Assembly: GCF_011045215.1 (NCBI RefSeq)
Contig: NZ_CP049201.1
DNA length: 64,000 bases
From: Escherichia coli
GTDB lineage: Bacteria > Pseudomonadota > Gammaproteobacteria > Enterobacterales > Enterobacteriaceae
Direction: 5' to 3' (one strand)
Part shown: positions 42,610-43,770 of the stretch, piece after piece
How positions within the stretch are numbered: position 1 is the first letter of the stretch
Layout: each line of letters begins with the position of its first letter
Translations under genes and position numbers: made by a program
Notes under the pieces: generated by a model
Databases searched by the model: none
What the model was told of the DNA's origin: nothing
What the model saw: only the letters and a program-made list of their open reading frames with translations

Positions 42610-43770
42610 TTACGCAGCGCTTTTATTTTTTGACGCGTCGATATAACTGTGCTCAGTTGGGCTAACCAACATGCTCAGGTTATAAATAAACGGCATACAT
42701 TTTGATTGCGCCGGAATAATTCCGTGAGCAGTTTGAATTTCGTAGCCGCTGATGTCAGACCAGGCGTAATCATTATCCAGCAGAGTCAGGGCAATGAAAC
42801 GCTGCAACGCTGGGGAAAAGAGTGCCTTCACGATATAGCCCACGTCTTGACCTTCCACCAGCACACGATCGCCAGCCTCAATGCCTTCGCATTCTTCCTG
42901 AGCGATCATGCCGATGAGTTTATTACCGGTATACTCCTGGGAGAGCTCTGTCACCGCGTCCTTGCCAATAAAATCATCTTTGTCGTACTGCACCGCCCAC
43001 TGCATCTGCAACTGAACCGGATTCACTGCCTGACCTTCCCAGAGGCTGGCATCCCAGCACGGATTTTCGAGGCGTACGATTTTTTGATAATCCAGGCCGC
43101 CGGTCTGCATCAGGTATTTCTCGCCGACGGTTAACAGTTTTTCCCACTGCTCCGCCAGTTTCGCCTGCTCACCGATGGTCATGTACGCATACTCACCGTG
43201 TTTACCACAGCGGAAGATCAGCAGATCCTCCTCGGTATTCATGTATTCGTAGTAAGGCAGGCCAATAACGTCAAAGCCATGAATTTCAGACATGATCTCC
43301 CAGGAGTATGGGCCTTCGAGCAGGATTGCCCCCCAGTTGTTTTCCCGCATATCCTGAATTTCAGGCATCGATTGAATATCCAGTTCTTCCGCTTTTTCGA
43401 GAATGGTATTCATGCTGGCGATCAATTCGGCAGCCGAAATATCTTCTGAAAGCAGGTAATAACCGTCAATGCTGCACAGCACATAGACGTCTCCGCGAAT
43501 GGTGCCCTCTTCATTCAACACCAGTGAGTAGATTGCCTGCTCATCACGAATGATGGAGACATCTGCGGAAACCAGCTGGTTGATCAGCGCCCAGGCATCA
43601 TCGCCCATGACGCTAACAATAGAGAGGTGAGAATAGTCCACCAGCAGCGCGTTTTCACGAACGGCTTTATATTCGGTCATAGCATCGTGATAAGAAGAAG
43701 GTAGGGTACGGTTGTTATATACCCCCATTACTGCATTATTTTTCAAGTGAAATTCAGCAAGAGATTTCAT
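42610..43770 (-). CDS. GcvT/YgfZ-like aminomethyltransferase-fold protein
   Basis: 386 aa; resembles the folate-binding aminomethyltransferase family by overall sequence character only; assignment tentative. Confidence 0.45.
   Translation of the reverse strand: MKSLAEFHLKNNAVMGVYNNRTLPSSYHDAMTEYKAVRENALLVDYSHLSIVSVMGDDAWALINQLVSADVSIIRDEQAIYSLVLNEEGTIRGDVYVLCSIDGYYLLSEDISAAELIASMNTILEKAEELDIQSMPEIQDMRENNWGAILLEGPYSWEIMSEIHGFDVIGLPYYEYMNTEEDLLIFRCGKHGEYAYMTIGEQAKLAEQWEKLLTVGEKYLMQTGGLDYQKIVRLENPCWDASLWEGQAVNPVQLQMQWAVQYDKDDFIGKDAVTELSQEYTGNKLIGMIAQEECEGIEAGDRVLVEGQDVGYIVKALFSPALQRFIALTLLDNDYAWSDISGYEIQTAHGIIPAQSKCMPFIYNLSMLVSPTEHSYIDASKNKSAA

Follow-up and report, generated by a model that had tools for sequence, protein, structure and literature searches.

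The stretch of Escherichia coli DNA analysed here (64,000 nucleotides of contig NZ_CP049201.1; hereafter the window) contains a gene for a protein with the fold of GcvT, which is the glycine cleavage system's T-protein, within an operon of genes resembling those of type II fatty acid synthase (FAS) and polyketide synthase (PKS) pathways. The GcvT-like gene is a single open reading frame (ORF) at 42610..43770 on the minus strand, with an ATG start, a product of 386 amino acids (aa) and the Shine-Dalgarno sequence AGGA 7 nt 5′ of the start; its coordinates match exactly the interval singled out in an earlier note on this DNA. In this report, we discuss the conservation, structure and residue chemistry of the encoded protein, which probably works on the cargo of the operon's acyl carrier protein (ACP) rather than on glycine.

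The neighbourhood of the gene includes ycdU, a ToxR-like regulator and a CSS-EAL protein, and according to reviews of the O-islands such neighbours identify O-island 47 (OI-47; z1528-z1556) (PMC8565820, PMC10877973). The window is E. coli OI-47. Studies of OI-47 genes in the literature searched concern the regulators GrvA and VmpA only (PMC8565820, PMC10877973), and no characterisation of its FAS/PKS-like genes was found in the searched O-island literature. A paper on an ACP-linked GcvT-like enzyme was not found either in the searched full-text literature, in which subscription journals are poorly covered, and a prior report is possible. Literature matches to sponge PKS neighbours and to housekeeping gcvT in a proteome table were judged to be unrelated.

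Organisation of the operon

The genes of the operon all lie on the minus strand, with intergenic gaps of 4 to 90 bp. They are given here in operon order (KS, ketosynthase; CLF, chain length factor; SDR, short-chain dehydrogenase/reductase; TPS, two-partner secretion).

47528..51340, minus strand: TpsA exoprotein, 1270 aa, with a TPS domain and haemagglutinin repeats; first gene of the operon
45820..47439, minus strand: TpsB transporter of the ShlB/FhaC type
45436..45804, minus strand: AcpS-type phosphopantetheinyl transferase
44661..45422, minus strand: FabG-like ketoreductase (KR; an SDR)
44109..44657, minus strand: FabZ/ApeI-like dehydratase (DH)
43806..44087, minus strand: ACP, 93 aa, with the phosphopantetheine site LDSVD; proposed partner of the GcvT-like protein
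42610..43770, minus strand: GcvT-like (T-protein-fold) protein, 386 aa; key residues D94 (catalytic Asp equivalent), K190, E109, W157, R187, E193 and the C-terminal tail PF..N.S..V.P.EHSY
39978..42536, minus strand: fused KS-CLF, 852 aa, N-terminal half with a Cys-His-His triad
38750..39973, minus strand: third KS-like protein (KS3); RefSeq start used, the longest ORF reaching 40039
37800..38753, minus strand: conserved hypothetical protein, 317 aa
37082..37789, minus strand: LolD-like ABC ATPase
36442..37098, minus strand: conserved hypothetical protein of 218 aa whose N-terminus resembles a signal peptide; always between the ATPase and the permease
35131..36441, minus strand: LolC/E-like permease of the MacB type (MacB_PCD and FtsX domains)
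34334..35122, minus strand: LolA_like (PF17131) periplasmic lipid/lipoprotein carrier
32949..34337, minus strand: conserved hypothetical protein of 462 aa that carries a signal peptide and may reside in the outer membrane
31994..32935, minus strand: FabD-like malonyl-CoA:ACP transacylase (AT)
31011-31997, minus strand: ycdU, a multi-pass membrane protein

The GcvT-like gene sits between the ACP and ketosynthase genes on the same strand, as the earlier note had described: 35 bp separate its start from the ACP stop upstream, and 73 bp its stop from the KS-CLF start downstream. These two genes are its neighbours, and neither gcvH nor gcvP is adjacent to it. At the head of the operon, TpsB is placed in the same operon as acpS because its stop is only 15 bp from the acpS start. 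The start of ycdU overlaps the FabD-like stop by 4 bp, and a YcdU-like gene (25% identical) also follows FabD in L007, one of the distant loci, so that ycdU may be a cluster gene and not part of the K-12 backbone. A scan of the operon for promoters and terminators gave no signal above chance.

The C-terminal half of the KS-CLF protein is considered chain-length-factor-like because all three triad residues are absent from it. KS3 has Ser at the catalytic Cys site, with a Cys two residues before it, and Tyr in place of the second His. No sequence match in Pfam, NCBIfam or the PDB was obtained for the adjacent 317-aa protein, which aligns weakly with the thiolase fold; together, KS3 and this protein might form a non-condensing transfer enzyme. 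The E. coli operon encodes no enoyl reductase, thioesterase or recognisable acyltransferase.

Fold and selective constraint

The N-terminal 259 residues of the GcvT-like protein match the whole of the Pfam GCV_T profile (positions 2-255 of 255; E 3.7e-33, 115.3 bits against a gathering threshold of 25.6), and residues 284-361 match GCV_T_C (E 1.7e-7, 31.4 bits, gathering threshold 25.9). A sequence search of the PDB returned the Thermotoga maritima T-protein 1woo as the top match (E 2.5e-24), followed by 1v5v, 1yx2 and 3a8i. An AlphaFold2 model built from an alignment of 89 family sequences reached a predicted local distance difference test score (pLDDT) of 96.4 and a predicted template modelling score (pTM) of 0.93. 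Foldseek comparison of this model found the T-proteins 1wos, 1woo, 1yx2, 1v5v and 3a8k first (E ∼3e-32 to 1e-29, template modelling (TM) scores of 0.76-0.86), then the folate domains of sarcosine oxidase, DMGDH and DmdA, with LigM at TM 0.67, YgfZ at 0.60-0.62 and Iba57 at 0.5-0.58. By both its Pfam domains and its model, the protein thus has the three-domain T-protein fold that defines the GcvT superfamily.

The earlier note had labelled the protein as GcvT/YgfZ-like. The first half of that label stands on the Pfam matches and the TM of ∼0.8 to T-proteins, and the second does not: YgfZ-like identity was rejected on its lower structural similarity and on a profile match to 1nrk of just E 2e-5, and the Cys motif of the KGC(Y/F)xGQE type found in YgfZ/Iba57 is not present in the translated sequence. 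A role as the missing enoyl reductase was also rejected, as the protein has no nucleotide-binding fold.

The gene is a maintained one under purifying selection, since the ratio of non-synonymous to synonymous substitution rates (dN/dS) is ∼0.11 against its Enterobacter and Kosakonia orthologues. Within E. coli, it is 99.9% identical to its counterpart in strain GF4-3 and 99.1% identical to those in O157:H7 and O55:H7. The gene in GF4-3 already carries the RefSeq label 'aminomethyltransferase family protein'; the existence of the gene and its generic annotation are therefore not new.

Conservation and coupling to the acyl carrier protein

Homologues at 60-72% identity are found in Enterobacter, Klebsiella oxytoca, Kosakonia, Leclercia, Serratia, Aeromonas, Acinetobacter and Neisseria sp., and the gene order of their loci is that of E. 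coli, with TpsA and TpsB included. The linkage between TPS and FAS-like genes is kept in Enterobacter, Kosakonia, Klebsiella, Serratia, Aeromonas, Acinetobacter and Neisseria loci, which suggests that the lipid product and the secreted TPS protein work together. Beyond these close homologues the family shows a break: in an exhaustive search of representatives at 50% identity, a few clusters lie at 35-42% identity (229-334 bits), followed by a large set at 25-32%. The order ACP, GcvT-like, KS/CLF is retained in loci at 60-72%, ∼40% and ∼30% identity, and the ACP is directly upstream in every distant context inspected, save for locus L012, whose contig begins ∼100 bp before the gene.

This association was quantified in a census of 80 loci, taking one genome per species and mapping genes by tblastn. 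An ACP homologue lies immediately upstream of the GcvT-like gene in 76 of the 80 loci, at a distance of mostly -43 to ∼+60 bp, and two of the four loci without one are truncated at a contig end. The loci span Enterobacterales, Acinetobacter, Pseudomonas, Paraburkholderia, Desulfatitalea, Competibacteraceae, Planctomycetes, Gemmatimonadetes and Myxococcota. Natural fusions of a PP-binding domain to GCV_T and GCV_T_C were also found in five independent 50%-identity representatives (459-477 aa), one of which was confirmed as a single ORF of 459 aa. The embedding in a FAS/PKS-like cluster that had been proposed in the earlier note is thus borne out, as the pairing of ACP and GcvT-like genes is kept across phyla and extends to natural fusions.

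Four architectures can be distinguished. The first is the E. coli type with TpsA and TpsB, and the second lacks both and is found in Serratia, Erwinia, Paraburkholderia and Pseudomonas alcaligenes. In the third, the ACP and GcvT-like genes are followed by three KS/CLF fusions; this type occurs in Competibacteraceae, Paraburkholderia ribeironis and Planctomycetaceae (loci L010, L062, L068, L070, L071 and L076), with two FabD-like genes in L070 and L068. The fourth, in Myxococcota, has the order KS/CLF-ACP-GcvT-like-KR-AT-DH. Its most compact form is seen in Polyangium (L074, L075, L078, L079 and L082), where a gene for an uncharacterised 332-aa protein precedes this set; in L074 the cluster adjoins leuS, the other Polyangium loci having been mapped for cluster genes only. 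Its retention by several Polyangium species is a hint that in Myxococcota it may fulfil a housekeeping-like role connected with a lipid or a cofactor. A recognisable release enzyme was not found in this minimal Polyangium cluster or in the E. coli operon, and the search for clues to the product in Polyangium L074, Paraburkholderia L070 and L010 yielded just further KS/CLF, SDR and AT genes and unrelated neighbours.

These data bear directly on the plainest alternative, according to which the protein is an ordinary second T-protein or a demethylase of the DmdA/LigM type, carried on the island as a passenger with no link to fatty acid synthesis. Its generic Pfam and NCBIfam matches to GcvT, DmdA, SoxA and trimethylamine N-oxide demethylase fit such a view. 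However, they fall far below the curated cut-offs for the GcvT models (NF001567, 136 against 300; TIGR00528, 99 against 236; NF010093, 82 against 459) as well as for the demethylase models (DmdA, 74 against 410; LigM, 27 against 580; DesA, 30 against 800). Moreover, the glycine cleavage partner genes are missing from the neighbourhood, and housekeeping gcvT is present in 5425 of 5426 complete E. coli genomes, as against 381 (7%) for the GcvT-like gene; the genuine gcvTHP operon is located elsewhere in these genomes. Identification as the housekeeping GcvT paralogue was rejected on the cut-offs and on this separate location. The GcvT-like gene is an accessory island paralogue, 23% identical to E. 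coli GcvT, and the passenger explanation, effectively refuted by the synteny and the ACP fusions, is left with hardly any probability. Synteny, fusions and dN/dS together make the gene a conserved core component coupled to the ACP rather than a passenger.

Structural modelling is in line with such coupling. The E. coli ACP was joined to the enzyme through a 20-residue Gly-Ser linker and modelled with AlphaFold2, using a paired alignment of 19 ACP and enzyme pairs from the loci plus the five natural fusions. The linked model has a pTM of 0.87 and a mean pLDDT of 88.6, with values below 50 just at residues 94-114, the linker. By an estimate from the definition of pTM, ∼0.73 would be expected with the ACP unplaced and 0.84-0.89 with the ACP docked. 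The ACP thus appears to be docked confidently on the enzyme in the model, which we regard as soft evidence.

Cofactor-site residues

Of the tetrahydrofolate (THF) contacts of human GcvT, Met56, Asp101, Tyr197 and Glu204 do not vary among the THF-binding proteins GcvT, TrmE and DMGO; Arg233 is specific to GcvT, and Arg292 binds the alpha-carboxylate (PMC9551070). These positions were mapped via E. coli GcvT, over 89 family members, and by hidden Markov model alignment to 1woo. The Met56 site stays hydrophobic (L49), and the catalytic Asp (E. coli D97, human D101) corresponds to D94, with Asp in 82 of the 89 members and Glu in the other 7. The pterin-binding Tyr (E. coli Tyr188, human Tyr197) is replaced by K190, and by Lys or Arg in most of the family, which has the motif GK[HT]GE against the canonical GYTGE. 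The pterin-binding Glu (E. coli Glu195, human Glu204) is replaced by M197, the site being Met, Leu, Gln or Lys in the E. coli clade and variable elsewhere. Arg223 (human Arg233) becomes Gln229, with Gln or Leu across the family. Arg292, which in work on the E. coli T-H complex reportedly recognises the lipoyl-lysine arm, is Cys294 in the GcvT-like protein and a gap in most members. The folate-binding residues that the earlier note had wished to see checked are thus mostly lost (Tyr, Glu, Arg233 and Arg292), with the Asp kept.

The family has also acquired features of its own. Asn113 is replaced by a family-invariant Glu or Asp (E109), W157, R187, E193 and S366 are further invariant residues, and the C-terminal tail PF..N.S..V.P.EHSY is absent from E. 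coli GcvT. A signature of R.GK[HT]GE[FY].Y, W157, E/D109 and the PF..N.S tail is present in the GcvT-like protein and in at least 77 of the 50%-identity representatives. This ACP-partnered, T-protein-like family with altered cofactor residues is distinct, and new in the literature searched. Its residue pattern resembles folate-independent YgfZ/Iba57 more closely than a working aminomethyltransferase. Since the canonical pterin and glutamate contacts have been lost from the pocket in the E. coli clade, the acceptor or cofactor there is probably something other than folate held in the canonical manner.

These substitutions have to be set against a sharpened form of the idea in the earlier note, namely that the protein is a folate-dependent one-carbon or aminomethyl transferase acting on an ACP-bound substrate. 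For example, methylene-THF (with ammonia) could react with the nucleophilic alpha-carbon of malonyl- or beta-ketoacyl-ACP, installing a branch (aminomethyl, hydroxymethyl or methyl) or providing a beta-alanyl-type starter, and an amino- or branched lipid of an unusual kind would be the product. The T-protein fold and its two Pfam domains, the conserved N10-activating Asp and the hydrophobic Met56 site are all as such an enzyme would have them, and coupling to the ACP fits folate transfer as well as it fits the explanation that we favour. Asp or Glu occupies the pterin-binding Glu site in roughly half of the distant members. The GcvT-fold domain of TrmE/MnmE supports the aminomethylation of a carbon nucleophile. 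TrmE/MnmE is among the THF-binding relatives of the fold (PMC9551070). Against this, other residues stand in the E. coli clade at the positions of Tyr197 and Glu204, invariant in THF binders (PMC9551070), and neither Arg233 nor Arg292 is retained. The NCBIfam scores for GcvT, DmdA and the demethylases are far under their cut-offs, and folate-related genes are absent from all clusters examined. Folate-dependent transfer therefore seems a somewhat unlikely, if still credible, description of the E. coli protein.

Loss of the canonical cofactor residues, taken with the tight linkage and fusion to the ACP, could alternatively point to a non-catalytic scaffold or chaperone that binds the ACP and shields or positions its chain, for instance in chain-length control or presentation to the KS-CLF. 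The cavity would then be vestigial, as in Iba57/YgfZ. Precedent exists for proteins of the GcvT fold that have given up folate (PMC9551070), and type II systems make use of a catalytically dead KS homologue, the CLF, which in this operon is the C-terminal half of the 852-aa protein. The polar residues aligned with the cavity (D94, E109, R187, K190, E193, Y196 and E235) are, however, strongly conserved across phyla, the dN/dS is low, and retention of the Asp in 82 of 89 members would not be expected of a pure scaffold. We consider this role rather improbable.

Proposed mechanism and product

In the T-protein, the thiol-ended arm of the carrier enters the central cavity, where an Asp activates N10 of folate for attack on the carbon held on the sulfur of the arm, and the carrier is thereby unloaded. 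Since the GcvT-like gene is found adjacent or fused to that of an ACP in FAS/PKS-like clusters across phyla, the cargo of the ACP is favoured over glycine as its substrate. Our preferred explanation, to which we give about an even chance, is that the protein is an ACP-partnered T-protein descendant that catalyses group transfer at the carbon on the phosphopantetheine sulfur. The docking geometry, chemistry and substrate set out below are those that we infer for it.

According to this proposal, a T-protein descendant would have exchanged the lipoyl H-protein for the ACP of the cluster as its partner, and the absence of Arg292 and of nearby gcvH and gcvP supports such a switch. The protein belongs to the core of a conserved type II FAS/PKS-like pathway whose other parts are KS-CLF, KR, DH, AT, ACP and AcpS and which lacks enoyl reductase and thioesterase genes of its own; in E. 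coli this pathway is co-transcribed with the TpsA/TpsB pair and the Lol-like export set. On docking of the ACP, its phosphopantetheine arm would enter the central cavity in the manner of the lipoyl-lysine arm in the T-protein, and Asp94 would activate a nucleophile for attack on the carbon attached to the sulfur of the arm. The group bound to the ACP might be loaded in this way, but its off-loading, or its transfer to an acceptor in the remodelled pocket once occupied by folate, is the likelier outcome. Unloading or transfer of the finished chain is the most probable version because minimal clusters contain no release enzyme; starter loading would be the alternative version.

Several observations weigh against this proposal. 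Asp or Glu occupies the pterin-binding Glu site in 35 of 70 distant members, so that folate use in part of the family seems possible on this sequence evidence. The Asp of Iba57 is conserved yet dispensable (PMC9551070), and a conserved Asp alone is therefore no proof of catalysis. The docking argument from the pTM of 0.87 stands without a negative control. Finally, the 317-aa and 218-aa hypothetical proteins, and KS3 with its Ser, could be the real release or transfer enzymes.

As for the product, the chain may be unsaturated or polyenic, because the KS is FabF-like and the cluster contains no enoyl reductase, or it may be reduced by the FabI of the host. The Lol-like export set and TpsA/TpsB suggest an outer-membrane or surface destination. 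In the most far-reaching version of these ideas, the switch from H-protein to ACP would have brought chemistry unprecedented in FAS/PKS systems, and the product would be a specialised outer-membrane lipid acting with the co-transcribed TPS exoprotein in enterohaemorrhagic E. coli O157:H7 and in many other Gram-negative bacteria. Such chemistry might be a folate-dependent, Mannich-type aminomethylation of malonyl- or beta-ketoacyl-ACP, which would introduce a C1-N unit as the starter or as a branch of the chain, or a thioesterase-independent unloading of the ACP. We hold this combination to be unlikely.

If the preferred explanation of transfer at ACP-bound cargo is correct, a fold of primary metabolism would have been recruited as an obligate ACP partner in a widespread and unstudied biosynthetic system, and would constitute a new enzyme class for type II FAS/PKS enzymology. 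FAS/PKS-like systems with a GcvT-like gene are present in Enterobacterales, Acinetobacter, Neisseria, Aeromonas, Pseudomonas, Paraburkholderia, Myxococcota, Planctomycetes and others. It would also provide a handle on the 'polyketide or fatty-acid biosynthesis' half of OI-47 in E. coli O157:H7, where the conserved operon link to TpsA/TpsB and the Lol-like exporter points to a lipid of the cell surface with a possible bearing on adhesion or on interaction with the host. Since E. coli is genetically tractable, the system lends itself to direct tests.

Surroundings of the cluster and allelic variation

One E. coli allele of the GcvT-like gene, P0034 (143 member sequences), is truncated to 287 aa, with loss of the C-terminal barrel and a W157R substitution at a family-invariant site, apparently a sign of gene decay in some E. 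coli lineage.

The cluster adjoins a mobile-element junction at 23241-30732, which comprises an IS200 TnpA at 30223-30732, a tyrosine integrase at 28731-29933, for which the GF4-3 annotation gives a frameshift, and at 23241-24692 a DUF3987/YfjI protein. The GC content falls to 36-43% across 18-32 kb of the window. On the other side, the rest of OI-47 extends over 52733-63992 and contains a chaperone-usher fimbrial operon (52733-59357, plus strand), a stand-alone SDR (59503-60294, minus strand) that lies outside the conserved cluster in other genera, the ToxR-like regulator GrvA (60973-61785, plus strand) and the CSS-EAL phosphodiesterase VmpA (62382-63992, minus strand). A separate contact-dependent-inhibition locus at 5491-16857 on the minus strand encodes a 3024-aa CdiA-type protein, with an ESPR signal, a TPS domain, haemagglutinin repeats and a PT-VENN pre-toxin domain, and a CdiB transporter of the ShlB type.

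Comparison with known systems

The closest known relative is GcvT itself, with which the GcvT-like protein shares the three-domain fold (TM ∼0.8 to 1woo, 1yx2 and 3a8i), both Pfam domains and the catalytic Asp and, by inference, a small carrier protein with a thiol-ended swinging arm as its partner. It differs in its low identity (23%) and scores below the equivalog cut-offs, in the loss of the pterin Tyr and Glu, Arg223 and Arg292, and in the change of Asn113 to Glu. The C-terminal tail of the family, an ACP gene instead of gcvH as neighbour or fusion partner, and its accessory status set it apart further.

In YgfZ/Iba57 (COG0354, Fe-S protein maturation), as in the present family, the canonical THF contacts are largely lost and the Asp is often kept (PMC9551070). 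In contrast, structural similarity to these proteins is limited to TM 0.5-0.62, their KGC-type Cys motif is missing from the GcvT-like protein, and the genomic context is wholly different.

The N-terminal domain of MnmE/TrmE is likewise a GcvT-fold module recruited outside glycine cleavage, and a canonical THF binder that keeps the Met/Asp/Tyr/Glu set (PMC9551070), which the GcvT-like family does not. The TrmE module is furthermore a domain of a GTPase that acts on tRNA, not a partner of an ACP.

Finally, at the level of the pathway, the operon resembles aryl polyene (APE) and other highly reducing type II PKS/FAS-like clusters of Gram-negative bacteria in its KS with a CLF-like partner, KR, FabZ/ApeI-like DH, own ACP and LolA-like carrier for outer-membrane export, and in the absence of a cluster-encoded enoyl reductase. 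APE clusters carry aryl-starter enzymes, a thioesterase, acyl- and glycosyl-transferases and an MMPL exporter, and we know of no published APE cluster with a GcvT-like gene. The OI-47 operon has none of these APE enzymes or their exporter, and is distinguished instead by its fused KS-CLF, its LolCDE-like export set and the TpsA/TpsB pair at its head.

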